A stretch of DNA of 64,000 nt, taken from the NCBI GenBank assembly GCA_001797365.1, contig MGPH01000030.1, positions 1,963-65,962 on the forward strand. The letters are read 5' to 3'. Position 1 is the stretch's first letter. Each line of letters begins with the position of its first letter. Below, in pieces: positions 11,772 through 54,085 of this stretch. Made by a program: the position numbers and the translations under genes. Source of the stretch: Deltaproteobacteria bacterium GWA2_45_12. GTDB lineage: Bacteria; UBA10199. The notes under the pieces were generated by a model. It was not told the DNA's origin, searched no databases, and saw only the letters and a list, made by a program, of their open reading frames with translations.

Positions 11772-13343
11772 ATGAAATTTATTGGATACTTTTTATCTTT
11801 TATATTTGTCTTTGTGTTGATGGCTTGCGGTTCTGGCTCAGACAGTAGCAGCGACTCATCAAGCAGTGATGATAACGATCTGGCTGAATCAGCTTATCCC
11901 AGTGGTCTGGCCGTATCTTCTCCTTACTCAAGCTCTGATACAGAAACCAATATTTCGGCATTGGTTATGGCTGCTGTTGGTGATGAGGGGAACGTGACAG
12001 GCCTTCCCTATGAAGAGAAATTGGCCGCCTTGGATGCGGTTGTTAATGGAACAAGTATGAGTGATTGTTTTAATTATGATGCAGATTTGTTCCCGGATGA
12101 GCCCACGGTTTCATGTTATGGACCAGATCTGACATTAAGCGGAACCCATCCTAATGGGGGATTTTCTGGCGGTGGAAGTCAGGGTCTTCCCTCGGGGGAT
12201 CTTGGGCTTTGGGAAGCCAGTGAAGATGGTGGGGAGGCTTGCATTGCTTCCAAGGTGAATTCTGAAATGACGAGTGTTGAAGGACGCATGGATTTTTCGA
12301 TGTTTGCCATGGCCTCTGCTTTTTGTGTGGCCAATAATAACGGGGATACCTTGCCTGCCGTGGGGGGGACTCTTGATCTTTCAACAGCCTTTACTGATGC
12401 TGCCGAGGCTGCCGATTTTACAGGTTTTGATCCCACAACGGTTGTCTTGACCCGCGGGACTGATACCGATGATGGGAATGCCGTTTACACGCTCAACATC
12501 ACCGGTGAAATTGTCAATGAGGATGAAACAACCATGCCCTTTGCCTTGGAAATGACCCATGTTCCTTTGGATGCCACCAATTCGACCTATCAGGGGCTCA
12601 TGCAAGCCACCATTGAAACCAGTGATATTCCCACCTCCAATTGTGGTGCAGGAACTCATACCGTGGGGATGTCGGCTCTTTATGAATTGGCAGCCAGTAC
12701 TGATTTAAGAGTGCAATACAAACAGGCTGTTTTTTGCACCACAGGGGCGACCGATGAGGATATTTTTGATGATGAAGGGGAGGCGGATGCCACTCATAAA
12801 AAGAGTGGGGAATGTTCCGGTGAAACAGGGGTTACCTACAGTGCCACGGGTTGGGGCGATGATTATAATTATCTCCTCATTAATACGGATCCCACGACAG
12901 GATATGGGAACCTTGTTTATGGTTGGCAGGCAGGACGCTGCGATCAAAATACACGCGTCTTCAAGGCTTCCATCAGTGCCGATGGCGGTACAGATAGCAA
13001 TGAAGGAGGCTGCGGCTATTTCGGTTTTGGTGCGGATATTTCGCAAGCAACTCCCGATATCGATGGGATGATTTGTAACTGGACGGGGCCGGGCAGTGGT
13101 GGTTTTGGAAGTCATACGGTCCAGGATTTGGTTCAACGTCAATGTGTTTCACGGGCCAGTGTTACAGACGATTTTGCATCGGTGGCTGCCACTTTGAATA
13201 TTGACTATGCTCCGACCAATAACTGTAATTCAGACGGCTCTCTGTTATGTGATGGAGTGGCTTGCGTGACCACCAATGATCTGTTAGACATCGCTGAAAT
13301 GGATTTTACCGATCCAACAGCCCCCACAGCCCTTGATATTTAA
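11772..13343 (+). CDS. acidic Cys-rich lipoprotein of unknown function
   Basis: 523 aa; signal peptide plus lipobox VLMAC-G; Ser/Asp-rich linker; 22 Cys and many Gly/Asp/Thr; no recognisable catalytic motif. Confidence 0.6.
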   Translation: MKFIGYFLSFIFVFVLMACGSGSDSSSDSSSSDDNDLAESAYPSGLAVSSPYSSSDTETNISALVMAAVGDEGNVTGLPYEEKLAALDAVVNGTSMSDCFNYDADLFPDEPTVSCYGPDLTLSGTHPNGGFSGGGSQGLPSGDLGLWEASEDGGEACIASKVNSEMTSVEGRMDFSMFAMASAFCVANNNGDTLPAVGGTLDLSTAFTDAAEAADFTGFDPTTVVLTRGTDTDDGNAVYTLNITGEIVNEDETTMPFALEMTHVPLDATNSTYQGLMQATIETSDIPTSNCGAGTHTVGMSALYELAASTDLRVQYKQAVFCTTGATDEDIFDDEGEADATHKKSGECSGETGVTYSATGWGDDYNYLLINTDPTTGYGNLVYGWQAGRCDQNTRVFKASISADGGTDSNEGGCGYFGFGADISQATPDIDGMICNWTGPGSGGFGSHTVQDLVQRQCVSRASVTDDFASVAATLNIDYAPTNNCNSDGSLLCDGVACVTTNDLLDIAEMDFTDPTAPTALDI

Positions 13344-15765: not shown

Positions 15766-18700
15766 TTGGGTGGAAGTGATGGGATGACTATGGCTCCCCT
15801 TAAAGATATTCTTTACACGATAAAAAATCCTCAACAGCTCGGCTCGAGCGATCTTCTATGCGCTCCTCCTCCTGGCTCTGATGTGTTTAATCAATCTCCT
15901 TGTACGGTTAGTTCTTTTTCTGCTGAAACGGTGAGCCAGAAAGCGATGAAGAGTGGTTTGATTAGCCCTGATCAAGGTATGGCTTTTAAAAACAGGCTGA
16001 AAGCCTATTTTCGAGAAAATCTTAAAGACACCCAAGTTGATACTCTCGAAGAATATAGTGCGATCTCCAATCTAAACCTTCTTGCCTACCGTCATACCTT
16101 AGAAACAGTTTTTCGCGATAGGAACAATTGGGCGACCTGTTCGGTTCAAGAAGGAATAGCTCTTAAAAGTGCCCTCATGGACAGTGACCTTTATAGGAAA
16201 GTGGCGAATAAAGAAGGAGCTAAATTACTTCATGAACTCGACAATCTTCCATGGGGTGTATTGGCTGAGGAATCCGTTTTTAAACATTGGGTGAATACTT
16301 ATCAGGATAATACTTTCATCAATCTTCTCTTTCACGCGGCAAAGGCAGAGTATCCCGTTGACAAAGCACTGGTCAAATTAATGAAGGAAAAACCAGAGCG
16401 GATGGACCCCATGGATTTTGCTTCCATCCTTCCTTTGAATCTTGCTTCGGTGAATGAATATATCCTTGGAAACGGTGGTCATCCTCCTGAAATTTACAAA
16501 GATCTTCTTGAAAAGGCGCGGGATGATGAAGGCTTCATGAGTTACAGTGCCATTTTAACTTACGGCCTCAACCATGCGCATCCGGAGGCTTTGAGGGAAG
16601 CCAAAGAAATCATCCTTTTTGATTTCCATCATATTTTTGTGCATTTGAGTTCGGATGCAAAAATAGCCCTGAGAATCCTTCTTATACCGCCCCAGGCAAG
16701 GCCAGCTCAAGTCCCTCAATTCTTTGCCGAGGACTTAGAACAGATTCAAGCGGAAGTTCAAAAAGCCTTGCCCGATGTTTATAGGCAAGACAATAATCAC
16801 GCCGCCGAGCTTTTAATCCTCTTTTTGTTGGGATTCGGGGATGAAGATGTTTTTCACGGGGATTGCTGGGAACATCTCGTTTCCATGGAGACCAAGAGAA
16901 AGGGCGATTTTGAGAAGGCCAAAAAAGAATTTGTACCCCTTAGTTTTCAAAGTATCGTGACTGCCATTATGTTTCCCGAGGATGATGCCCTTGATAAGAA
17001 GGCCGCTGTGAAGGCGCTCGTGGTTGCTGCCAAATTGTGGAACCGCGAAGAAAAAGAAAATCCCTGGCCTTATGAGGCTCCTCTGATGCGTCTTCAGGAA
17101 ATCATTAACAAGAGGGGAAATGTCACATTGGAAGCAATGCAGGCCCTCTACAATGTACTGATCGTTAGGAAAGAAGAAGACGAAGAGGTGGAAGCTCAAG
17201 TTCAGCAGAGAAGGGATTTTGCCTTTAAATTTTTTGATAAAGGGATGGAGGCTCAAAAACTAGCTTCTTTTTTTGAAACTTATCTCCAAGATTTTAATAA
17301 TCAAGGCAAGGATGAAGAACTCGATAAATTAATGGGGAATCTTCTTCTCCCTGAAAACAATGCATCCCCAATCTCGCCGCCGGAGCTTCAAAAAACCTAC
17401 GATCTTTTGTGTCTTTTTGCCGGATCACAAACTATGACCCTGGCTGAAAAAGCCATTCCTCTCTTGGTTAAATTAGAGAATCATTCTCTTTATCAACAGA
17501 ACGAAAATTCCCCGATCCAAGTATTAAAACAAATTGTTTTGGACAAAAAGGCAGCTCATCAAGAAGCGTGGGATGCTTTGGCCGGCCTTGTTCTTAAGGA
17601 TAAAAAGCCCGTGGTTTTAGAGGATGAGAAGAAGAAAAAATATATAGGGAATATCGCTGCCATTGCCGGGCCCGAAGAGCAATATTGGGATAATGGTCAT
17701 GTGCTGGATGCTGCTCAGGTTCTTTTGGATTTAGAAAAGAAAACCCACGATGAATTCATTCATCAAACTTTGGTAAGCTTGGATACGGGGGCGTTGGAGA
17801 GTTTGGTGGGGGATTATGCACCTTCTCAGGAGGATACTATGAAGATATTCCATCAGCTCATGGAGCGATGGAAGACGAATCCACCCAAGCATTTTATGAT
17901 TACAGACGATTCGGTATCTGATGGAAAAACTTCTTCTATTAACTTTGCCGCAATCATAGGGCAGGCTAATACGCAAAATCTTGGGATGATTAATGAACTG
18001 ACTCAAAATTTTTCTGACGGTGAAAGAAGAAGAACTCAACAGCGTACTGGGCTTAATCAGGTAGAAATTCCTTCGATTGTTGAAGCTTCTGAAGATACTT
18101 CGGATGCTGAAATCGATGAAAATAAGGGAGATGAAAAAGTATCAGATCCTCTTCAAGCTCTCTCGGATCTGGCCAAGCTTGGGAATGTTTCGGCCTTTGA
18201 ATTCATCCTTGGGCGTTTTCAAAAAGGCGATATTTCCATGGTGAAACCCTTAAAAAATATTTTAAATGATGATGATGCTTCAGAATTTCATTCCAAAATA
18301 ATCGATACGGCGAGGGAGACTTGTCTTCAATTTACGGACCCTGCTTCTAAGAGAGCATCCTTTGATCTCTTAATTGTGGCCGCCGAAAAAGAAAGACCCG
18401 GTTGCTGGGAAGCCTTGTTTCTATCGGCAACGGAACATTTTGAGCTGAGCGTTTCTTGGGAAGGATTGGCCAAGGAGGCCGCTATGGCTTTGCTTAGCAT
18501 GGGAAGTGGCACAGACCCCGAGCAAGTCGATGCGCTTCGCGAATTGGATATTTATCTCGCTTCTCTTGTAGGGTCTTCGGAAATGGCGACGGGTGAATAT
18601 GATCCTCTTCTCGACGATTTTCTGACTTATCCCCATTCCTCTCAATTAATGGAGTTGGAAGCGGCCCTTGAGAAATATAGAGAGAATAGGACCAAACCGC

Positions 18701-42128: not shown

Positions 42129-42200
42129 GTAATCACTTTTCTTGAAAAAGGCCCATAAAAAATTAGACAAATAGTGATTCTTGCTTTATCTTTTCGGGCT

Positions 42201-44399
42201 ATGACAAAAAAAATCCATTTTTTAATCATTTCCTTTTTCTTTCTCACCCTCTTTTTTAATCCATCATACGCCCAGGAACAGGGTCAGCCAAAAACAGATC
42301 TTCTTTTCATTATTGATTCCTCCGGAAGCATGGCCTCCCTTCTTGAAGGGCAGCGCATGATTGACTGGGCCAAAAAGGCTGTGAAAAGTGCCGCAGCCCA
42401 ACTGCCGCCCGAGGCTTACGCAGGACTTCGTGTTTATTCCCACCGTATCGATAAAAGTAACAAGGAAGCTAGTTGCAAGGATACGGAATTAGTTGTTCCC
42501 ATTTCTTCAGGAACAGGTTCGCTGATTGCGGCCTCTGCCGACAAGCTTGAGCCCCGCGGATGGACACCTATTGCCTATACTCTTTCGCAGGTGGAAGCCG
42601 ACTTTAACCAGAATGTCGAAAAACTTCATACCATTATCCTGGTCAGTGATGGGGAGGAAACCTGCGGCGGCGATCCGGCTGCGGTCATGCGCGCTTTGGT
42701 GGCCAAAGGGTATAAATTCAAGCTCTGCACGGTAGGGTTTAATGTGGAGGATGTGGCCAAACAACAACTCATGGCCTTAGCCAGCGAATTTGGCTGCACT
42801 TACACCGATGTTCGTAGCGGTATGTCGTTGGAGCAGGAATTGGCCAAGCTGACACAGCAAAGTTTTCTCATTGAAAAGAAGGTGAACCCAAAAAATCAAA
42901 TACGCGGTGGAGACAGTTTTAATGATGCCGTCCCCATTGAAACCAACAAGAGATACAGCCTGGACCATCATCAAAGGAAGGATCAATACGATTATTTTTC
43001 GTTTAAACTAAAGCAAGGTGAGGCCGTCTCTCTCCGAGTTTTCCCGGTTGAAAAATGCCTGGATGTCGTCGGGGATCAGGCGACAGAGCGCGCCAGCAGT
43101 TCGTGCGACTACGATGGGCTGCGGTATGTGTTGATGGATGGGCAGCAAAAAGAATTGGAGAGGTTGTCATTTTTCCTCGTCAACAAGCAGCATGAAACCG
43201 ATTTCTATACTTCTTCAGCACCAGGAGAGACCCTCTACTATCTCATCATTGGTAGCCCCTATGATGAAATGCATAAAGATCATGAATTCATCCTGACGAC
43301 CAAGCAGGGTACTTATACAGTGACGGGGTCATTGGGGGACGCCAATACGAATAATGATGCAGGGGATAATTTTTCTACCGCCATTGTTCTGTCTCCAGGC
43401 ATTTATGAAAACAACAGTGTTTCCAAAATGGATCAAGTGGACGTCTTTAAGGTGGTTTTGAAGGAACCTTCTTTGGTAAAACTTGTCGGTACCCATGTGA
43501 AAAAATCGGATTATGCGGATATTGATTTTGAGATTTTGGATGAATTAGGGGCCGTTCTTGGTAGCCAGGACCTTAGCGAAGGCAATTCCTATTCATTCCA
43601 GCCTCAAAGTCCGTTATCGGGCGCTATCTATCTGCGGGTCAAAATCGATTCCGTCATTGTGGATTCGGATACGGTCAATTATTCAATGGGTGTGTCGGTA
43701 AGCCCTGCACCGGTGGAGTTGATCGCAAAAGCCGTCGAAAAAACGCCTCCTCAAAAATCATCGGTGGAAGAAGTGGATGAAATGGAAGAGGTGGTTTTGG
43801 ATATAGTGCCATCCCCTCAAAAATTTACTCTGTGGCTGGGATTGGTTGCCTTGGCCTTTGCGCTGTTTGCTGGCCTGTATGTATTTTTCTTTGTGGTACG
43901 CAAAAAGGTCGCCGTGGATTTGTTCTCAAAAATTTTAGGGTGGTATGAGATCTTTGCCAGCATTATCGGCATGGGCACGGCTATTTGGCTAGCCACCAAG
44001 CAGCCTTCGCTTGCCTGGCAGATCGTGCTTTTGGTGATGCTTGGAGGCGTTGGTCTGCTTGGCATTATCGCCGGTGGAAATCTCTTATTGAACAAGGGGA
44101 GCAAACTTAGTTTTATTTGGGGAGGCCTCCAAGCCCCCTGGATTTACCTAAACCTTCATTGGGTGGTGGTGAAATATAGTCTTTCCTTGTTTTGGGGCCT
44201 GCCTGTTTACTTCTTCTTTGAAACGTCCCAAAACCCTATCGTCAATGTCCAGTCCAAAATGCATCTCGGGGCCCTATTTGGCTTATGGGCGCAATTCCTT
44301 TTCCCGGGAAGGGGCATGGGGATTGGTCTGGGCGTCAATCTGGCCGCGGTCCTGTTTTTGGGATTGTTGTATTTGAACCAGAGAAAAAAGACGAATTAA
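42201..44399 (+). CDS. von Willebrand factor A domain protein with a C-terminal polytopic membrane region
   Basis: Signal peptide; MIDAS DSSGS (FIIDSSGSM); about 6 predicted C-terminal TM helices. The start is taken at MTKKIHF (42201). Confidence 0.65.
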   Translation: MTKKIHFLIISFFFLTLFFNPSYAQEQGQPKTDLLFIIDSSGSMASLLEGQRMIDWAKKAVKSAAAQLPPEAYAGLRVYSHRIDKSNKEASCKDTELVVPISSGTGSLIAASADKLEPRGWTPIAYTLSQVEADFNQNVEKLHTIILVSDGEETCGGDPAAVMRALVAKGYKFKLCTVGFNVEDVAKQQLMALASEFGCTYTDVRSGMSLEQELAKLTQQSFLIEKKVNPKNQIRGGDSFNDAVPIETNKRYSLDHHQRKDQYDYFSFKLKQGEAVSLRVFPVEKCLDVVGDQATERASSSCDYDGLRYVLMDGQQKELERLSFFLVNKQHETDFYTSSAPGETLYYLIIGSPYDEMHKDHEFILTTKQGTYTVTGSLGDANTNNDAGDNFSTAIVLSPGIYENNSVSKMDQVDVFKVVLKEPSLVKLVGTHVKKSDYADIDFEILDELGAVLGSQDLSEGNSYSFQPQSPLSGAIYLRVKIDSVIVDSDTVNYSMGVSVSPAPVELIAKAVEKTPPQKSSVEEVDEMEEVVLDIVPSPQKFTLWLGLVALAFALFAGLYVFFFVVRKKVAVDLFSKILGWYEIFASIIGMGTAIWLATKQPSLAWQIVLLVMLGGVGLLGIIAGGNLLLNKGSKLSFIWGGLQAPWIYLNLHWVVVKYSLSLFWGLPVYFFFETSQNPIVNVQSKMHLGALFGLWAQFLFPGRGMGIGLGVNLAAVLFLGLLYLNQRKKTN

Positions 44400-46840
44400 A
44401 CTTCATATCCATCCCTACGCATGATTTCGGCGCGGATGATTAAATAGTCATAAAGGAATCGTCTTACTCGTTCCAGCCTTGATTCTATATCTATATCAAG
44501 CATGGGTATAAAAATTGAACTCAGTATGTCAGGAGTGTAATCAGGAACCTCACCATAGTAAACATAGGCCACAAGAATCATTTCCAACCAAAAACTATCT
44601 TCTCGGGGATAAATAAATTTTCCTTCTTTGACATCGTGTACCTTTTCATAACGATCACCGTTAAAGAATTTAAACAAGGCCGCTTCGGTTTTTTCGTTCA
44701 AAAGGGAATAATATTCAGATTGTTCAGGTGGAATGTGTTCCAAACCTTCCGGCCCCAGGGGGGTAAAATGCCACGGATAGGCAATGTTCCTGCCTTCTTC
44801 GGGGATGTATTTTTCAAGAAACTCGTCTTTTCGGGTGAGGTAGTAAAACAAAAAGAATTTGCTTTCATCCGACCACGCATAACCATCGAGTACTTTTCTT
44901 GCTAGATCCAAAGACAATTCAACCTTATCATCACTTCCCCGAGTGTGTAGCCATAGCAGCGTGGCTCCCAACCGTGGCGGCATCGCATCAAGGGGTTTAA
45001 TGTTCAATAGCTTTGCCATTAATCCCAAAAGACCCATGAATTCGTGCAATACTTCAAGCTTTTGATCGTTGCTCCATTGCGTATCTTTCAACACTGCCTT
45101 GGCTCGGCCCTCGAAAAGTAAGTTTTCAACGGCATCAACTAATTTTAAATCACCAAAATCTTCAAAGACGACTCGCGCTATGTTAAGACCCTTAGCATCA
45201 TGTATGCTCTTACGCCCTTGGTAGAAAGCGTGGGCTCTTTCATTGGCTTCTAAGACTTCGGCAATCGCCGAAGTTCTATCGAGCCTTCTTGTCGCCATTT
45301 CTTCAAGTTCGGTAAGATAGCGTTTATAAGCCTCGATGAGTGCCAATGTTTCTTGAACTGTTGGGGTTGGTTTTGCCTTGTCCTCGTTGGGAATTAAAAA
45401 AGCATATTTTTTTCTGAAGAGGGCGAGGGCTCTTTGGGAAAACTCCCTGTATTCGGGGGTTATTTCCAGGATGGGGTCTGGGTCTCGTGCTATTGATTCT
45501 GCATTTCTAACAAAACGAATCTCAACTGAGTCCCATTTACGCGGCGCTCGTAAGGTTGGACCATTTCTCCAAACCCCACTTTCTGTTCCCCAGATAAGAC
45601 AAAGGGAATGAAAAATTCTTGCACGTACCGTCTTATAAAATTCATCTTCATGCCCTTCGATTTTTTTGGTGCCATCGACATCCAAATTTACAAAACGACC
45701 ATCATCAGTGATGAGATACGTATTGTATTTCATGTCCTCCATGCGGTAGCCTTTTTCGGCCAATTCTTCGTACATGCGCATGGCCGTGCGTGCGTATCCG
45801 ATTCGTTTTGATGGATGTTGAAATAAAGGCCTGAGTCCTTGGGGATTGCCTAATGGTTTCATGGAATCATAACGATAATGATCCCCAAAATACCACCCAG
45901 TCACGTATTCCATCAAATAGGCGTTGTGGGCCACAAATTGCCTTTTCACAACTCCTGTTACGCCTTCAAGAAGAGGCAAGCTTTCCCGAAAGACGTGCTC
46001 CCAACCGGCTTTAAACAGCTTCAAGCAGATGGGCTTGCCTTGTTCGTCGCGCAATAAATAAACATTTGCCGATGCCCCATCTCCCAAAATTTTTTCCACA
46101 GTATAGATTGTTTCATTCAATAAACAGGACCTTCCTATTTGTACGGTCAGTTTGGAAACGATGTAAGCATTTCTTGCTATGGGTTTATGGGGCACCTCAC
46201 TTGGTGTAAGTATTTGGCCCTGTTTTAATATTCTTAAATAAAGAAAATCTCCTTCAATGATAGGACCTTTAATAGCATTTGTTGCTAACAGGGAATAAAC
46301 ATCCGAGGTGGGGTCACTTTCAATGCGGCTCGTAACGACATAGGTAACCCTGCCTATGGTGATCGTTGTTCCTAGACTAATGGGTGGTAAATCCCTGGTT
46401 AGATCTTCATCGACTATTACAGCACTTCCGGAACCACCTTCTGAAACAGTTAGGCTTCCCACTTGAGCTCGATGATCGCCCGGTGGATCGGAAGCACCCA
46501 TCATCTGCGGTCTTCTTAAGGGCAGCGTGCCTAATTCTTCTATAGCTCGAGTTGGTACTTTTTGTTCTAGGCCCGTTAGTTCTAAGCTTAAGGGCAGGGC
46601 CATGGCCGATGCGGCTTCTGCGAGCGTTTTAAAACGTGTGGGGGGAGTAAGCCTGAGGGCTAAAGGAACGGGGGCCAAAGAGCCATCATCGTACCCGTCT
46701 TTTGTATGTGATTTTGGGGTTGATGAGGGGGCATTTTTGGGATGTACCCGTGGTGCCCCGCTTACCCCAAGCCTGAAAGGGCCGCCCGGCATGGGGCGGA
46801 GGGGTATTGTTCTGGGAGTAAAAGAGAGAAGCTTGCTCAT
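44396..46840 (-). CDS. 814 aa protein with a divergent eukaryotic-like Ser/Thr kinase fold and a Pro-rich N-terminus
   Basis: Gly-loop LGDGASANVY, Lys motif ICLKLFK, Glu in FRESLPLLEG, hinge LMEYVTG, a catalytic-loop-like YRMEDMKYNTYLI (D-x-K-x-N) and DVDG in place of DFG. Its stop overlaps the stop of the convergent VWA gene. Confidence 0.5.
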   Translation of the reverse strand: MSKLLSFTPRTIPLRPMPGGPFRLGVSGAPRVHPKNAPSSTPKSHTKDGYDDGSLAPVPLALRLTPPTRFKTLAEAASAMALPLSLELTGLEQKVPTRAIEELGTLPLRRPQMMGASDPPGDHRAQVGSLTVSEGGSGSAVIVDEDLTRDLPPISLGTTITIGRVTYVVTSRIESDPTSDVYSLLATNAIKGPIIEGDFLYLRILKQGQILTPSEVPHKPIARNAYIVSKLTVQIGRSCLLNETIYTVEKILGDGASANVYLLRDEQGKPICLKLFKAGWEHVFRESLPLLEGVTGVVKRQFVAHNAYLMEYVTGWYFGDHYRYDSMKPLGNPQGLRPLFQHPSKRIGYARTAMRMYEELAEKGYRMEDMKYNTYLITDDGRFVNLDVDGTKKIEGHEDEFYKTVRARIFHSLCLIWGTESGVWRNGPTLRAPRKWDSVEIRFVRNAESIARDPDPILEITPEYREFSQRALALFRKKYAFLIPNEDKAKPTPTVQETLALIEAYKRYLTELEEMATRRLDRTSAIAEVLEANERAHAFYQGRKSIHDAKGLNIARVVFEDFGDLKLVDAVENLLFEGRAKAVLKDTQWSNDQKLEVLHEFMGLLGLMAKLLNIKPLDAMPPRLGATLLWLHTRGSDDKVELSLDLARKVLDGYAWSDESKFFLFYYLTRKDEFLEKYIPEEGRNIAYPWHFTPLGPEGLEHIPPEQSEYYSLLNEKTEAALFKFFNGDRYEKVHDVKEGKFIYPREDSFWLEMILVAYVYYGEVPDYTPDILSSIFIPMLDIDIESRLERVRRFLYDYLIIRAEIMRRDGYEV

Positions 46841-46947: not shown

Positions 46948-48732
46948 TTATTTTACCGACCATCCATTGGCTTCGCATATTTCAACATATGCTTCGGCAA
47001 TGCATTGAGTGCGCTCCTTAGCCGCCCGTTCAGCTTCTTTTCCTTGGTGTGCAAATCGATCGGGATGGTTTTCTTGCATCAATCGTAGAAAGGTTTTTTT
47101 AATGTCTGCTTGGGACGCGTCCCTGGCAATACCCAAAACGTAATAATAGGGATCTAGGTCTTTCCTTGTAGGCCTTTGATGGGTCTTTTTCCCTTGCTGG
47201 TTCGGCCCTCTTGCCTCTTGCTGTCCTGTTGTCTGTGGCGTGGGAATTTTAAAAGCTTTCGCTTTTCCAAATTTAACCCATGTTCCCGGTCCGACATACA
47301 CCTGACGATCAGAGCTTTTTAAAACCTCGATCCGGCCTCCAGGATGAAAAATATAAATAACCTTCCCACTCCCATCATGGGTTTCACTACTGATTCTAAG
47401 GTTAAAACCTTCTTTTTCTCGTTTCACTTGAAAATGAACTCCGCCATCATAATGTAATCCGTGGGAATGAGGGTAGATGTATCGATCAAAATCACTGAGC
47501 GATCTTAACCAAGCAGGCATGTTTCGAATGGGGAATCCAAATTGTATGAGTTGCCCCCCTATTTTATAAATCCGCCCCAATCGCAAGAAAACGGTTTCTC
47601 CTGCTGGTACTTGTCGTTTACTTCCACTATCAAAAACTTCTAATTCACCCTTTTCCAGACGAATCCCGAGGCCTTTGCCATTTTCTGGACTGTAGAAGAA
47701 TTCATAAGTCGATCCTCCGATGCTTTTTTTGAAAGGTGTATGGGGTTGATCATAGGCGTAAATGAGCCATCCCGTCATCCAAAGTGGCATGAGGGATATG
47801 GGGTTGATGAAACGATAGTATTGGCCGGGGCCATATTGGATGAGGTCCCCATCCACAAGAATATGTGTGGGCTTTTCTGCATTTAATGCGCGACGGTCAC
47901 GGTTGTTAATAACATGGAGTGGTTCACCATTTTTCCATGTCAACACAGGGTTGCTTTCAGCATCGTAGGAGATGCTTCCTTGTGAGGGGCCAGCATCAAT
48001 AGCTACAGATGCTTTGTTGTCAACGGCGGCTCCAATAAGAGCTGCCCCCATCGCTTCAGGCATTTCATCAAAGGGTTTGGTGAATTTGAAATATTGTTTG
48101 CCTATCTTAATGACCGCATCAAAAGGAATGCATTCTTCTTTTCCGGGTTTTAGTAAAACAGGTTCTTCCCCATCACGTAAAATGACCATGTCATAATAAT
48201 CCACCGTGAGGGTATTTCCTGTAGGTTGCCCATTGATCAGGCTATAGCCCCTTCCTGCTTGATACCGAATTCCATAATAGGGTTTTTCGTTAAATCCTCC
48301 TACCCTTTGACCCGGATTGCTCACAGCTTTTACACAGCTTTCAATGAAATAACTCGGCATGGGTTGGATTAATCTCTTATAGAGGAAAAATTTTCTATTC
48401 CCCATTTTGACCGAATCTCCTTCTTGGAGGACCTCTTTTTTACCAGAGGAATTCAGAACGATTTTTGTTTTATTCTCCTTTTTGACAATGACGATGGCCT
48501 CTCCTCCGGTCCATTCAAGAGTGAGCGCCCAAGGGTCTTCTTGGGTTACCTTTGCCTGAGCATGACCTATGTTAATGGTGGTTCCTTCAGGTTTTAAAAG
48601 AGTGGTGGCCAAAGCAATTTCTTCGGACTGGTTCATTTTTTCAAAGGGGCTACGAAACACAAAGGGAGGTTCATGGCCAAGGGTGATGATATCCCCATCT
48701 TTAAGTACAAGCTTCTGATCTCTAGAGTCCAA
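46948..48732 (-). CDS. C-terminal fragment: six degenerate FHA-like repeats + DnaJ J-domain (HPD)
   Basis: Repeat ends DIITLGHEPPFVF, DSVKMGNRKFFLY, DAVIKIGKQYFKF, DLIQYGPGQYYRFI, RIYKIGGQLIQFGF and TWVKFGKAKAFKI. J-domain DPYYYVLGIARDASQADIKKTFLRLMQENHPDRF...KEAE...EAY. Confidence 0.6.
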   Translation of the reverse strand: MDSRDQKLVLKDGDIITLGHEPPFVFRSPFEKMNQSEEIALATTLLKPEGTTINIGHAQAKVTQEDPWALTLEWTGGEAIVIVKKENKTKIVLNSSGKKEVLQEGDSVKMGNRKFFLYKRLIQPMPSYFIESCVKAVSNPGQRVGGFNEKPYYGIRYQAGRGYSLINGQPTGNTLTVDYYDMVILRDGEEPVLLKPGKEECIPFDAVIKIGKQYFKFTKPFDEMPEAMGAALIGAAVDNKASVAIDAGPSQGSISYDAESNPVLTWKNGEPLHVINNRDRRALNAEKPTHILVDGDLIQYGPGQYYRFINPISLMPLWMTGWLIYAYDQPHTPFKKSIGGSTYEFFYSPENGKGLGIRLEKGELEVFDSGSKRQVPAGETVFLRLGRIYKIGGQLIQFGFPIRNMPAWLRSLSDFDRYIYPHSHGLHYDGGVHFQVKREKEGFNLRISSETHDGSGKVIYIFHPGGRIEVLKSSDRQVYVGPGTWVKFGKAKAFKIPTPQTTGQQEARGPNQQGKKTHQRPTRKDLDPYYYVLGIARDASQADIKKTFLRLMQENHPDRFAHQGKEAERAAKERTQCIAEAYVEICEANGWSVK

Positions 48733-48751
48733 ACGAGTTATAGTATCTCCT

Positions 48752-50188
48752 TAAATCCGGCGTGAATGGTGTAGGGAATGCCTCCTTTGCTCAACACTGA
48801 CAGGCATTATAGAGTTTTTTGTGGCTAGTATTGAACCTAACTTTTAGTTAGCTTCAATACATGCGTTCTGGGGCTCGAAAAATCCGTACAAAATTCACCG
48901 CGTCTGGCCTCACTCATTTCGGTGGAATTTATCTCTTTCATAAATTTCTCCAGCAACTAAAAATACGATCCTGCTTCTTCCGACACCTGTCTTATTCTCA
49001 GAGAAACAATCAGTATTCTTTGAGCGAAATGATTTTGGCTTTGATTTATCCAATGATTCTTGGTTTGGAAAAAATCGAAGTGTCTTCTCTTCTGAAAACA
49101 AATGGCGTCTTTCATTTTCTGACTGGGCTCCCAACCTTTCCCGATCCTCAAACATTGCGCCGATTTTTGGTGAGGTCATCGACGGAACTGCTGCCGTCAC
49201 TTTGGAAAGTCCACAATGATCTCAAAAAATATTTCATCCTTCAATCTTCTACCCTCTCAAGTTTCTGTTTTGATTTTGATTCCACCGCGAAGACTCTCTA
49301 CGGAAAACAGGAAGGCGTGGTCAAAGGTTACAACCCCGGACATCCAGGAAGAAAATCCTATCACCCGCTGGTCGTCTCAGAAAGTTCTCTCAAGGATTGT
49401 CTGGGTGGATTTTTAAGGCCGGGGAACGCTTACACCTCAGATGGTGTGGTTGATCTTTTTCAACAAGCCCGTTCTATTCTGCCAACTTCCATCCGCTTGC
49501 GCACCCGTGCCGATTCAGGGTTTTATGATGGTTCTTTTGTCCGGACGCTGGACGAAAATCACGTGAAGTTTGCCATTGTTGCCAAGACATCTTCTCCTCT
49601 GAAGAAACTTTTTCTTTCGGCCCGCTATCAAAGAATCAACGACCGATTCTCAACCTCCGAGCTTTTGTATCAACCCGGCAAATGGAAAAAACCTTATCGC
49701 TATGTCGTCTTGAGAAGGATCGTTGATCCGGAAGACGACGGACTCACTCTTTTTACCTTGGACCGATATGCCTACTCGATGATCGTCACCAATCTCGATA
49801 TCACACCCTACGGAGTCTTCGATTTTTATAAAGCTCGAGCCGGGTTGGAAAGGATTATCCGGATTTTGAAAAACGACTTTCCTTTTGCCGGAGCGCCGAC
49901 CAATCATTTTTGTGCGAATGCTCTCTACGCGGAACTTTCTCTTTTGGCGTACAATCTCGTCATGTGGTTCAAGCGACTTTGTCTGCCGGGTGATTGGCAA
50001 TCCTTCACGTTGGAATCACTTCGGCACAAATTATTGCTGATGCCGGGAGAGTTGGTGCATACCGGAAATATTCACACACTCAAATTTCCGAGAAACAGTC
50101 CCAACAAGGATGTCTTTGAATTTGCTCTGAAGAAAATTAAAACGATGGACTCGCTGGTCTGAAAAATGGTGTTTTCACGCCGGATTTA
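48752..50188 (+). mobile_element. IS1380-family insertion sequence (~1.44 kb) with 15 bp perfect TIRs TAAATCCGGCGTGAA and a 9 bp direct repeat GTATCTCCT
   Basis: Left IR 48752-48766; right IR 50174-50188 (reverse complement identical). Direct repeats at 48743-48751 and 50190-50198; on the right a single G (50189) separates the IR from the repeat. Confidence 0.8.
48861..50162 (+). CDS. IS1380-family DDE transposase
   Basis: 433 aa; VKGYNPGHPGRKSYHPLVV matches the GYNP...Y.P hallmark of IS1380/ISEcp1-type transposases. RADSGFYDGSFV carries the second catalytic Asp. Confidence 0.85.
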   Translation: MRSGARKIRTKFTASGLTHFGGIYLFHKFLQQLKIRSCFFRHLSYSQRNNQYSLSEMILALIYPMILGLEKIEVSSLLKTNGVFHFLTGLPTFPDPQTLRRFLVRSSTELLPSLWKVHNDLKKYFILQSSTLSSFCFDFDSTAKTLYGKQEGVVKGYNPGHPGRKSYHPLVVSESSLKDCLGGFLRPGNAYTSDGVVDLFQQARSILPTSIRLRTRADSGFYDGSFVRTLDENHVKFAIVAKTSSPLKKLFLSARYQRINDRFSTSELLYQPGKWKKPYRYVVLRRIVDPEDDGLTLFTLDRYAYSMIVTNLDITPYGVFDFYKARAGLERIIRILKNDFPFAGAPTNHFCANALYAELSLLAYNLVMWFKRLCLPGDWQSFTLESLRHKLLLMPGELVHTGNIHTLKFPRNSPNKDVFEFALKKIKTMDSLV

Positions 50189-50851
50189 GGTATCTCCTCT
50201 CTTAACTTCAATGGGCAGTCCCCATACATGATAGGTGATTGTTACTTCATCAAAATAAACAGATCCTTGGAGTTTATATTGGTTGTGGAGACGGTATTGC
50301 CCCTCCTGTCCATGATTCACTTCGACAGAAAATCCCTCATTCATAAAAGTCCGGAAAACTCCCGCTTCAAAGATTGCTGGCATTTCCTCGCTGGGTGGTA
50401 CCGCAGCGGGAACAATAGCTGGAGGCGGTTCAGGAGCTGGAGGCGGAGGAACGGCACGAGCAGATCCACCCGAATCTTGAGCCACATGATGGCGAAAAGG
50501 AGTTTGCAGTCGATAACCCGGATTTGTAGTTCTTCGACCCGATCCATCGTTGGAAGCCATTTCGGGAAACAGAGCTCTGACCCCATCTTCTCTTAAACTT
50601 GGAAGTTGTTGCCCTTTCAAAACAAATTCATCCCTTCCATCAGAAGGGGCCCCCACAGCCAGTCGACGATTTTCTCGAGAACGTGAGACAGGTTGAGGAG
50701 GTTGAAGATCAGCTGGAGATGAAGATGGAGACAAATGAGGTCGCAAAGATGCGCCCGGTTTAGTTCCCCTAACGCGAGGGAAGGGGCCCCATCCTACGGG
50801 ACGAACACTGGGGCGAAAAGGCAGCACATTATTGGTACGAAAGATGGCCAT
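50186..50851 (-). CDS. N-terminal fragment of the interrupted gene (Pro-rich, 221 aa)
   Basis: AGGAGG lies 4 nt upstream of the ATG at 50849-51; PPPPAPEPPPAIVPAAVPP low-complexity segment. Confidence 0.6.
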   Translation of the reverse strand: MAIFRTNNVLPFRPSVRPVGWGPFPRVRGTKPGASLRPHLSPSSSPADLQPPQPVSRSRENRRLAVGAPSDGRDEFVLKGQQLPSLREDGVRALFPEMASNDGSGRRTTNPGYRLQTPFRHHVAQDSGGSARAVPPPPAPEPPPAIVPAAVPPSEEMPAIFEAGVFRTFMNEGFSVEVNHGQEGQYRLHNQYKLQGSVYFDEVTITYHVWGLPIEVKRGDT

Positions 50852-50925: not shown

Positions 50926-52740
50926 TTAGGAAGGTCTTTCTTGGAGGGCTCTTTGCAGACCTTCTATTCCCTGAGCCATCATGCTTTTAACAAAGTCATT
51001 AGAAGAGCCTTTTTTTCTGAACACAATAGCTGAAGCCCCTTGTGGAGAAGCATTCAGGTCGTTATCTATTTCCAAACCCAGTGTCTGCATTAAGTTTGCA
51101 TCCGGGCTATAGGGAAGAAGACTTCCTAACATGTTCGGAACAATGGTGGGCCCATTTCGTGGATCCGTAAATAAATAACCCTCTGGCACAAGAGCATCAA
51201 CAATTCGAATAAGGGTGAGCAGGCTAAAAATCCTGTCCCTCCGATCGCCATCGAGATAATCCTGAACAGGATGGAAGTAAGCCCCATGCATGGGAGGAAA
51301 TTCAACAGGGGTCACCACATAATCTCCCCTGGGTTGGAGTGTTATCCTTTTTTTAAGAGAATCACCGGGAATCCTTAGTGTAGCGACCGCAGCGGCTTTT
51401 TTTCCATGCCCCCTCATCCAAGTGACCCCTCTAACAGGAGTGGCTGAGGTACTCGAAATGAACGCCTCATAGGCTTTTCTTTCGGCCCTCACTTCCTCCC
51501 GCCACCGTGCCCCATAGGCTTGCCAAAACATCTGAGCGATTTCGGGATCATCAGGATAGAGTTCATAGGGGACCCAACTTAAAAAAACGGTAAGGGTACC
51601 ATCAAACTCATCAATGAGCTTAAGTGGTTCTGGTTCATCATTATAAACAAGGACGCGCATTTTTGGATCCAGACTCGCTAAAAGAAAGGGCTCATAAGTA
51701 GCATAGAGGGTACGTCCATTAGGATGATCAAATTTTAAATATCCAGGGCCAAAATTACCAAAAACGATTTCCTGATAGCGTTCCCTTAAACGAGGAATGA
51801 TGTTTTCCCTTAAATAAATCCATTCGGCAGCTCGTCGCGCAAACGTGGTGAAGTTGCGTATGATTCTGATGTCATCCCTGGTGCGACCGCGGTTCTCTCT
51901 GGCTTCCCTTAAAGAAGGAGTCGCATGGACGACGCCCTCTGGTCCCATAGCCAAGCGTGCTTGCGTCGCTCGATATACATTATCAGCTGTAACAATTCGA
52001 GAAACCCGTTCCATTTCAGCTCGGACGGAATCTGGTAGAGGTTCGACAGGAGTCACTGCGCCCACTTCCATTTCATCGGCAAGGGATGGGATATGGGCTA
52101 AAATCAACCCTTCTACATGGGCCGGGTCTGCTAAAAAATTTTCTGCACCAGCACCCAATTTTTTTACAAATTCTAAAACTCGTTCGATAACGAGGGCACG
52201 ATTAGCAGCTACTATCGTGGGGTCCCGGTCCAGGGCCAAAGCCAGTGAGGCACGTTCGCTTATGCTACTCATGCGAGCCATAAAATCAGGGTTTGAAAGG
52301 ATGCGAGTCACAACTTCTTTACTCTTTATAGCAATACCTTGATCAGGACTTATTGATGAATCTGCAGGCCGATCACTGCTGGCGGCTTTCCATCCCTCAT
52401 GATGATGCCCCACTAAATTCCCATGCCCATCGTATTGGGGAACCCACAAGGGAGCACGAAGGGAAGGAGTGTGTAAGCTTATGTCTGGAAAGGGAGTGGT
52501 TCTATTCCAATATCGATCTTTCCCGATGTCTGGCGCTAGTGAGCTATTTGTATGAAGCAAATCACCTGGTTTTAAGCTTACCTTTGCAACACTTTTTGAA
52601 CGAGAAGGAGGTGGAATAACGGGATGTGGTGTTGGCCTTAATACAAGGCTTCCGGGTACAATACGTGCACCAGAAAAAGATCGAAGGGGTCTATAGAAGG
52701 ATGGCGGACTCATAAATAAATGATAGTTGATCTTCGGCAA
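50926..52740 (-). CDS. 604 aa hypothetical protein (Pro-rich N-terminus; no known domain)
   Basis: The ORF-track start is TTG; the first ATG is at codon 10. It is in frame with, and separated by a single TGA from, the upstream squalene/phytoene-synthase-family ORF. Confidence 0.5.
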   Translation of the reverse strand: MPKINYHLFMSPPSFYRPLRSFSGARIVPGSLVLRPTPHPVIPPPSRSKSVAKVSLKPGDLLHTNSSLAPDIGKDRYWNRTTPFPDISLHTPSLRAPLWVPQYDGHGNLVGHHHEGWKAASSDRPADSSISPDQGIAIKSKEVVTRILSNPDFMARMSSISERASLALALDRDPTIVAANRALVIERVLEFVKKLGAGAENFLADPAHVEGLILAHIPSLADEMEVGAVTPVEPLPDSVRAEMERVSRIVTADNVYRATQARLAMGPEGVVHATPSLREARENRGRTRDDIRIIRNFTTFARRAAEWIYLRENIIPRLRERYQEIVFGNFGPGYLKFDHPNGRTLYATYEPFLLASLDPKMRVLVYNDEPEPLKLIDEFDGTLTVFLSWVPYELYPDDPEIAQMFWQAYGARWREEVRAERKAYEAFISSTSATPVRGVTWMRGHGKKAAAVATLRIPGDSLKKRITLQPRGDYVVTPVEFPPMHGAYFHPVQDYLDGDRRDRIFSLLTLIRIVDALVPEGYLFTDPRNGPTIVPNMLGSLLPYSPDANLMQTLGLEIDNDLNASPQGASAIVFRKKGSSNDFVKSMMAQGIEGLQRALQERPS

Positions 52741-53873: not shown

Positions 53874-54085
53874 CCCCCTTTAAAAAAGGGGGATAAAGGG
53901 GGATTTGGGCCCGCTTTTATCCCCGTTTCTGTATTCCTTTCTCAGTAAATTCTTTCCCAACCTCTTTTTGCATAAGAGATATTTGAATCGGGTACGGGAG
54001 CTGGAACGGGAACAAATCCCCCTGCCCCCCTTTTTTCCCGCATACGGGATCCCGCTACGCGGTGATAAAGGGGGATGATACGGGA
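53874..54085 (-). repeat. B-element (MITE-like, inverted orientation relative to the 61.3 kb copy) with a flanking CCCCCTTTAAAAAAGGGGG hairpin and a degenerate right end
   Basis: GGGGGATTTGGGCCCG (53898-53913) ... CGGGAACAAATCCCCC (..54022). The reverse complement of 53912-54020 aligns with 61275-61380 (ccgttccagctcccgtacccgattcaaatatctcttatgc...ggaaagaatttactgagaaa). Confidence 0.65.

Follow-up and report, generated by a model that had tools for sequence, protein, structure and literature searches.

A J-domain gene split by an IS1380-family insertion sequence in Deltaproteobacteria bacterium GWA2_45_12: a candidate class C co-chaperone with six degenerate FHA-like units

What kind of protein is encoded where a J-domain closes a long chain of barely recognizable repeats, and is the gene that encodes it whole? 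This question is raised by a 64,000-nucleotide stretch of the genome of Deltaproteobacteria bacterium GWA2_45_12 (assembly GCA_001797365.1, contig MGPH01000030.1, positions 1,963 to 65,962 of the forward strand), referred to here as the window. An earlier note on this DNA described a 594-residue open reading frame (ORF), annotated at NCBI as hypothetical protein A2048_10135, as six tandem repeats of about 90 residues followed by a C-terminal J-domain. We found that this ORF is the 3' part of a gene split by an insertion sequence (IS). Our preferred reading, to which we assign a probability of roughly two in three, is that the intact protein is a lineage-specific class C J-domain co-chaperone carrying an array of FHA-like domains that binds its partners independently of phosphorylation. 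The coordinates of all features are given in Table 1.

The 594-residue ORF is separated from a 221-residue ORF on the same strand by an element that combines a family DDE transposase, terminal inverted repeats and a target-site duplication and is an IS of the IS1380 family. Its transposase scored 254 bits against the NCBIfam model transpos_IS1380 (NF033539; cutoff, 180), and its inverted repeats, TAAATCCGGCGTGAA, lie at 48752-48766 and 50174-50188, with no further copies in the window. The boundaries of the IS can also be drawn at 48749-50190, which gives CC/GG ends and shortens the duplication to 5 bp (TATCT). The pre-insertion (empty-site) sequence (...GAGTTATAGTATCTCCTCTCTTAACTTC...) and the reconstruction are the same under either parse.

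When the IS and one copy of the duplicate were removed in silico, the two ORFs fused in frame to give a product of 818 residues. The stop codon of the 221-residue ORF (TAA, 50186-50188) lies within the end of the IS, and the junction falls between reconstructed residues 221 and 222, within the first repeat unit. The 221-residue ORF contributes residues 1-157, an N-terminal region rich in Pro, Arg and Ser, together with ~64 residues from the start of unit 1; the 594-residue ORF contributes the tail of unit 1, units 2 to 6, a linker and the J-domain. Because the junction is inside unit 1, what the earlier note took for a first repeat amounts to no more than ~36 residues at the end of a unit. The intact gene does have the six tandem units of ~90 residues that were claimed, but the ORF holds five full units plus those last 36 residues. 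Similarly, the ORF exists as it was called, but the reading of it as one ORF missed that it is a fragment of an IS-disrupted gene. The database entries of 594 residues ("hypothetical protein") and 221 residues are thus halves of one gene, and on balance we think it probable that before the insertion the locus encoded a single 818-residue cytoplasmic protein. The N-terminal ~157 residues of that protein, rich in Pro, Arg and Ser (29 Pro and 18 Arg among the first 160), are probably disordered.

The six strings that had been quoted as repeat ends are all present, and they terminate at ORF residues 26, 118, 217, 309, 400 and 496, at the regular spacing described (92, 99, 92, 91 and 96 residues apart). 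BLASTP comparison of the ORF with itself detected no internal repeats, which indicates that the units are very diverged; identity between units is ~20 to 28%. Pairwise Smith-Waterman scores of the units were read against 300 shuffles. This gave z scores of 7.4 for units 1 and 2, 9.2 for units 1 and 4 and 12.3 for units 2 and 4, and the unit 1-unit 4 alignment crosses the IS junction ungapped. The remaining pairs gave z scores of 0.3 to 3.6 (mean of all 15 pairs, 3.5), with unit 5 tied to unit 3 (z, 3.3) and unit 6 (z, 2.8). All significant unit-unit alignments are in register. Neither unit 3 nor unit 6 was equaled by any of 500 shuffles when scored against a profile of units 1, 2 and 4, so that the periodicity on which the description of repeats depended is statistically significant for these two units as well as for units 1, 2 and 4.

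Further evidence joins the two sides of the insertion. The C-terminal part of unit 1 scored 15.4 bits against a profile of units 2 and 4, a score as high being reached by 0 of 1,000 shuffles, and the same profile aligned to reconstructed residues 211-257, spanning the junction, with 15.8 bits (0 of 1,000 shuffles). The N-terminal half of unit 1 alone was not significant against this profile. Each unit has hydrophobic strands at its end followed by a P-x-x-x-M-P linker, and the 818-residue protein has just five Met-Pro dipeptides, each of them at a unit boundary (residues 157, 349, 448, 539 and 629). The motif that the earlier note had written for the terminal strand failed as a pattern, since it fits just one of the six strings. 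Once relaxed, it fits five units, against a chance expectation of 0.12 and a maximum of 3 in 5,000 shuffles. No unit-like domain was found in any other ORF of the window. The six units, of ~90 to 100 residues each, would stem from internal duplication.

To what fold do the units belong? AlphaFold prediction of one repeat unit, a check proposed in the earlier note, was carried out with AlphaFold2 (AF2) for unit 2 on a seven-row alignment of the protein's own units. This gave an FHA-like, all-beta model of eight strands with a mean predicted local distance difference test score (pLDDT) of 69.5 (74 to 88 in the core) and a predicted template modeling score (pTM) of 0.62. The FHA domains among its structure matches included those of APLF (8.0), Bdellovibrio DgcB (7.9), MDC1 (7.8), CEP170 (7.7), PNKP (7.6), aprataxin (7.4), Chlamydia CT664 (7.3) and GarA (7.2), and the FHA domains of kinesin-3, EmbR, Rad53, Chk2, Ki-67 and EssC likewise were matched; SMAD MH2 and IRF domains, which belong to the same superfamily, were interspersed among them. 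Support from Foldseek was marginal: its best match was again the FHA domain of APLF (E value, 0.027; template modeling [TM] score, 0.54 to 0.59), and the highest TM scores (0.5 to 0.59) were exclusively to FHA domains.

The units were also compared with FHA domains by profile. Six reference FHA domains were verified by Pfam (E values of 1e-12 to 1e-21). Alignment of the units to these domains with hhalign gave P values of 2e-4 to 5e-4 and probabilities of 33 to 46%, confidence being limited to the last ~22 columns. Against the observed score of 26.5, 200 column shuffles reached 8.7 ± 1.9 (maximum, 16.0), a difference of ~9 standard deviations, and the reversed alignment reached 9.3. The end strands that matched follow the pattern L..GD.I.iG...F.F. 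At low stringency the alignment kept the same order over 97 columns, and a Gly-His pair of unit 2 fell on the FHA Gly-Arg. A search of PDB sequences with the unit profile returned nothing significant; the FHA domains of KIF1A/KIF1B were among the matches at an E value of about 1, which is suggestive only, and matches to a designer TIM-barrel and to SH3 were noise. By its model, unit 2 is a beta-sandwich of the FHA type, and units 1 and 3 to 6 would share this fold by their internal homology. We consider it likely that the units are FHA-fold domains. The FHA assignment, put forward in the earlier note as a hypothesis, thus holds at the level of the fold.

The same note had remarked that the canonical FHA loops are not evident, and this was correct. 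All six reference FHA domains carry the phosphothreonine (pThr) signature G-R ... S-x-x-H ... [ST]-x-[NY]-[GP], whereas not one of the six units does. Unit 2 has His in place of the FHA Arg, and by our residue count its Ser-x-x-His loop is ~6 residues shorter than that of GarA. Judged on these sequence features, the units are not canonical FHA domains. They resemble the canonical domain (PF00498; APLF, MDC1, GarA, Rad53 FHA1 and Bdellovibrio DgcB) in their last strands but differ from it in lacking both a Pfam match and the GR / SxxH / NG signature. By our own counts they also are shorter than GarA (~90 residues including the linker), the loop between the fourth and fifth strands is shortened, and there is probably one strand fewer on the N-terminal side.

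FHA domains usually occur in one or two copies per protein, compared with six in tandem here. FHA folds without the pThr-binding residues are known from the N-terminal tandem FHA-like pair of EssC/EccC and from the cytoplasmic domain of the type III secretion system (T3SS) proteins YscD/CdsD, in which they act as protein-protein scaffolds. Unlike the present protein, these are membrane ATPases or ring components with two copies rather than six, and the Pfam family Yop-YscD_cpl was undetected in the present units.

The C-terminal J-domain described in the earlier note was confirmed. Pfam family PF00226 matched ORF residues 529-582 with an E value of 1.1e-9 (38.7 bits; cutoff, 27.8), J-domains in the PDB matched with E values down to 1.4e-6, and the HPD tripeptide of the helix II-III loop, as read from the translation, is intact at ORF residues 556-558 (...LMQENHPDRF...; codons 47059-47067). 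Pfam analysis of the whole ORF and of each unit identified the J-domain alone, LapA and Vault_2 being sub-threshold noise. The best NCBIfam match was DjlA (NF006948; E value, 1.6e-13) at model positions 182-266 of 267; the total of 50.9 bits falls short of the cutoff (162), the alignment being confined to the J part. The J part alone also aligns with the DnaJ equivalog TIGR02349 (35 bits; cutoff, 377). Since no full-length DnaJ match was obtained, the protein belongs to class C of the J-domain proteins. It is established for the family that a J-domain with HPD stimulates ATP hydrolysis by DnaK, and the present J-domain would be expected to recruit DnaK in the same way.

In contrast to DnaJ proteins of classes A and B, the present protein has no G/F region, zinc finger or C-terminal domains. 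It is similar to DjlA in having an HPD J-domain at its extreme C terminus, behind a flexible linker, but lacks the transmembrane segment and the N-terminal domain of DjlA. As in other class C J-proteins (DjlA, auxilin/GAK and HscB), the remainder of the protein would be a specialised targeting or binding module; the difference is that the module here consists of six FHA-like domains. No description of an architecture combining FHA and J-domains was found in the literature searched, and six degenerate FHA-like domains with a C-terminal J-domain appear to be undescribed in the searchable literature.

J-domain proteins set where Hsp70 acts, and the members of class C are defined by their targeting modules. 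The known diversity of this class is large, with 2,712 different architectures, among which DjlA is the most abundant subtype; of the J-domain proteins that belong to neither class A nor class B, about half carry a J-domain-only annotation (PMC10410713). The present case indicates that a J-domain protein can contain an extensive array of folded domains which escapes profile searches and becomes visible only through repeat-aware structure prediction. Were the architecture to turn up intact elsewhere, the FHA fold, which usually serves as a reader in phospho-signaling, would be tied to chaperone recruitment. Its reach is limited in that the gene is a singleton without relatives and is interrupted by the IS in every assembly on record.

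A word-indexed search of 5.8 billion clusters with the 818-residue reconstruction returned only its own entry (OGP09267.1), an exhaustive HMMER search of 1.84 billion representative proteins with the repeat region returned OGP09267.1 only, and scans of metagenome and genome contigs recovered no relative. A single metagenome match, of 33 residues in a phage contig, was spurious, and a homologue search with the J-domain by itself yielded no candidate for a combined FHA and J-domain architecture. The exact 221-residue product, with its stop codon in the IS, is present on 11 contigs from several assemblies (NCBI, ENA and Logan), and the transposase gene follows the 221-residue ORF on every contig that includes the flank. 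The IS-split allele is the only one on record, and no intact allele was found. The gene itself shows no variation in other assemblies.

Short contigs of other assemblies have a flanking gene identical to that of the window and 10 to 33 differences inside the IS, and several contigs from other assemblies terminate within the IS. The IS1380-family element appears to be multi-copy, with variant copies in other assemblies, in which case differences confined to the IS are to be expected. In a second assembly of the organism (GCA_003501025.1, contig DNQF01000047.1), the contig breaks in the J-domain gene 141 codons before its end, and the downstream 814-residue neighbor is called as 702 residues from a later start. 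Gene models of this block therefore differ between assemblies.

How might the intact protein have worked? The Arg, Ser, His and Asn residues that bind pThr would have been lost from all six units, and from this loss we infer that partners were bound without regard to phosphorylation. The six FHA-like units would form a multivalent protein-binding platform that chooses a partner or assembly, the J-domain would trigger ATP hydrolysis by DnaK (Hsp70), and DnaK would then clamp onto and remodel the selected partner. The logic would be that of auxilin or HscB. The only candidates for the partner would be the proteins of 604 and 814 residues encoded by the orphan genes on either side. The gene is split within unit 1 in every assembly on record and hence is most likely a pseudogene now, probably throughout the sampled populations; an expression product would be at best an N-terminally truncated remnant.

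Several observations weigh against this reading. No FHA, Yop-YscD_cpl or other Pfam family was found in any of the six units at E values of up to 10, and unit 5 is tied weakly to the array, 15 of 500 shuffles reaching its score against the profile of units 1, 2 and 4. Structural support comes from one moderate-confidence model of one unit on an alignment of self-repeats, in which pLDDT is below 50 in the first 15 and last 5 residues; single-sequence AF2 of the 594-residue ORF was unusable (pLDDT, 36.8). Foldseek gave no match at an E value of 0.001 or below, with other beta-sandwiches mixed in among its matches, and the confident profile match to FHA spans just ~22 columns. There are no homologues in which conservation or selection could be followed, and other assemblies differ from the window only inside the IS, the gene being invariant. 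Finally, dnaK is absent from the window, as is grpE.

Some of these observations are what would be expected if the units were a small beta-sandwich or barrel without kinship to FHA domains, resembling them in the last strands only, in which case the model would be an artefact of a shallow alignment. A Pfam FHA match and a significant PDB profile match are both lacking, all Foldseek E values exceed 0.02, fibronectin type III, carbohydrate-binding module and cupin folds occur among the matches, and the mean pLDDT of the model is just 69.5. We nevertheless consider this unlikely: the top TM scores all belong to FHA domains, the low-stringency hhalign alignment runs in order over 97 columns with Gly-His placed on Gly-Arg, and the profile score lies ~9 standard deviations above the column shuffles. 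Accepting the FHA-like fold, one could also take the units for working pThr readers with substitute phosphate-binding residues, coupling Ser/Thr-kinase signaling to DnaK, the kinase perhaps being the 814-residue neighbor. FHA genes often adjoin kinase genes, and that neighbor has a weak GxGxxxxV...K stretch like a kinase N-lobe (NCBIfam E value, 0.09; RIO2 E value, 0.32). In unit 2, moreover, the Gly-His pair aligns at the FHA Gly-Arg, and an Asn is kept at the loop past the sixth strand by our own reading against GarA. The full signature, however, is missing from all six units, the Ser-x-x-His loop of unit 2 is truncated relative to GarA, Pfam detects no FHA domain, and the kinase likeness of the neighbor is not significant, with no kinase found by Pfam. 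We regard working pThr readers as very unlikely.

Two further proposals concern the role of the gene and not the fold of its units. The protein could be a secreted effector that hijacks the Hsp70 of a host or prey, its disordered N terminus serving as the secretion signal, with the flanking orphans as further effectors. Such a layout is known from HopI1, a T3SS effector of Pseudomonas syringae with a disordered N terminus, repeats and a C-terminal J-domain; all three adjacent orphans begin with Pro/Arg-rich sequence, and they form an island amid housekeeping genes in which the IS landed. The repeats of HopI1, however, are short Pro/Gln-rich units, unlike the folded domains of ~90 residues here, and no sequence similarity to it was detected in any search. 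The three proteins are only marginally alike at their N termini (P = 0.03 for one pair), the window has no secretion-system genes, host association is not known for this groundwater genome, and the J-domain is nearest to bacterial DjlA. This is the least probable of the explanations that we considered. It is also very doubtful that the gene is a fast-evolving, lineage-specific ORF that never had a defined function, a decaying array with a captured J-domain in which an IS was tolerated. The extreme divergence of the units from one another, the failure to find homologues anywhere searched and the exclusive presence of a disrupted allele would fit that idea, but removal of the IS restores an 818-codon frame exactly, which is unexpected of nonfunctional DNA. 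In addition, HPD is preserved in the J-domain, which scores above the Pfam cutoff, all six units have retained MP linkers and the hydrophobic patterns of their strands, and a strong AGGAGG precedes the ATG.

The class C co-chaperone with a phospho-independent FHA-like array thus remains our preferred reading. Beyond it lies a more speculative and, in our estimation, decidedly unlikely proposal: that the six FHA-fold modules are a multivalent scaffold holding an oligomeric partner (maybe the flanking orphan products, one perhaps a very divergent kinase-like protein) for loading of DnaK, a new form of Hsp70 targeting, or else that the three orphan genes specify effectors for export, with a foreign Hsp70 being hijacked by one of them.

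Table 1. Coordinates in the window of the split J-domain gene, the insertion sequence within it and the flanking orphan genes
Feature	Coordinates	Strand	Remarks
IS1380-family IS, ~1.44 kb	48752..50188	+	Perfect 15-bp terminal inverted repeats TAAATCCGGCGTGAA
IS transposase gene, 433 aa	48861..50162	+	Pfam DDE_Tnp_1_4, E 2e-53
Left target-site duplication GTATCTCCT, 9 bp	48743..48751		Directly repeated outside IS ends
Right target-site duplication GTATCTCCT, 9 bp	50190..50198		Directly repeated outside IS ends
5' fragment of split gene	50186..50851	-	221 aa, ATG start, AGGAGG before ATG
3' fragment of split gene	46948..48732	-	594-aa ORF, TTG start
N-terminal low-complexity region	50381..50851	-	Reconstructed residues 1-157; ends ...PPSEEMP
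Unit 1, N-terminal part	50189..50380	-	Residues 158-221; unit 1-unit 4 alignment ungapped across junction
Unit 1, C-terminal part	48634..48741	-	Residues 222-257; contains DIITLGHEPPFVF
Unit 2	48355..48633	-	Residues 258-350; the modeled unit
Unit 3	48058..48354	-	Residues 351-449; 8-aa insertion ahead of last two strands
Unit 4	47785..48057	-	Residues 450-540; nearest to unit 2, z 12.3
Unit 5	47515..47784	-	Residues 541-630; most divergent unit
Unit 6	47230..47514	-	Residues 631-725
Polar, basic linker, ~30 aa	47149-47229	-	Between unit 6 and J-domain
C-terminal J-domain, DjlA type	46951..47148	-	ORF residues 529-594
Upstream orphan gene	50926..52740	-	604 aa (longest ORF), 74 nt from split-gene start
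Downstream orphan gene	44396..46840	-	814 aa, 107 nt past split-gene stop

The two flanking orphan genes are codirectional with the split gene and may belong to the same operon. Pfam, NCBIfam and PADLOC gave no assignment for either the 604-residue or the 814-residue product, no homologues of the latter were found, and neither shares a unit-like domain with the split gene. PADLOC identified no defense-system family for the split gene or its four neighbors. The three adjacent orphan genes each open with a Pro/Arg-rich region, the pairs other than that mentioned above showing no significant N-terminal likeness. The kinase N-lobe-like stretch of the 814-residue protein reads GDGASANVY...ICLKLFK, a match that is not significant, and with nothing from Pfam its assignment as a kinase is unsupported. 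Its seemingly strong PDB matches to designer PPR proteins proved to be one 29-residue stretch summed across identical repeats.

The three-gene block sits among housekeeping genes, namely, those for a squalene/phytoene synthase, the large and small subunits of an aconitase-family enzyme, a phosphoribosyltransferase and citrate synthase, and further for an FtsW/RodA-family protein, a penicillin-binding transpeptidase, MreB and MreC. A scan for promoters and terminators found nothing above chance, and Rfam had no match in the window. Converging on the 814-residue gene, with a 4-bp overlap at their ends, is a gene (42174-44399, + strand) for a 741-residue protein in which a signal peptide and a VWA domain are accompanied by a hydrophobic C-terminal region that seems to span the membrane several times.

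Elsewhere in the window, an element of ~165 bp is present at 53880-54040 and 61260-61425, in both cases intergenic; the two copies are in opposite orientations and are 89% identical. Its ends form an inverted repeat (AAAAAAGGGGGGyAGGGGGATTTG ... CAAATCCCCC..TCCCCCTTTTTT), and it looks like a miniature inverted-repeat transposable element, with no Rfam family. Two further large ORFs have no Pfam family: one at 15766-19197 (+ strand) encodes an acidic, mostly helical-looking protein of 1143 residues, and one at 11772-13343 (+ strand) encodes a lipoprotein-like protein of 523 residues with a Ser/Asp-rich start. The ORF at 24915-25805 (+ strand) encodes a RES-domain protein, of the type that acts as toxin in RES-Xre toxin-antitoxin pairs, and lies among housekeeping genes.

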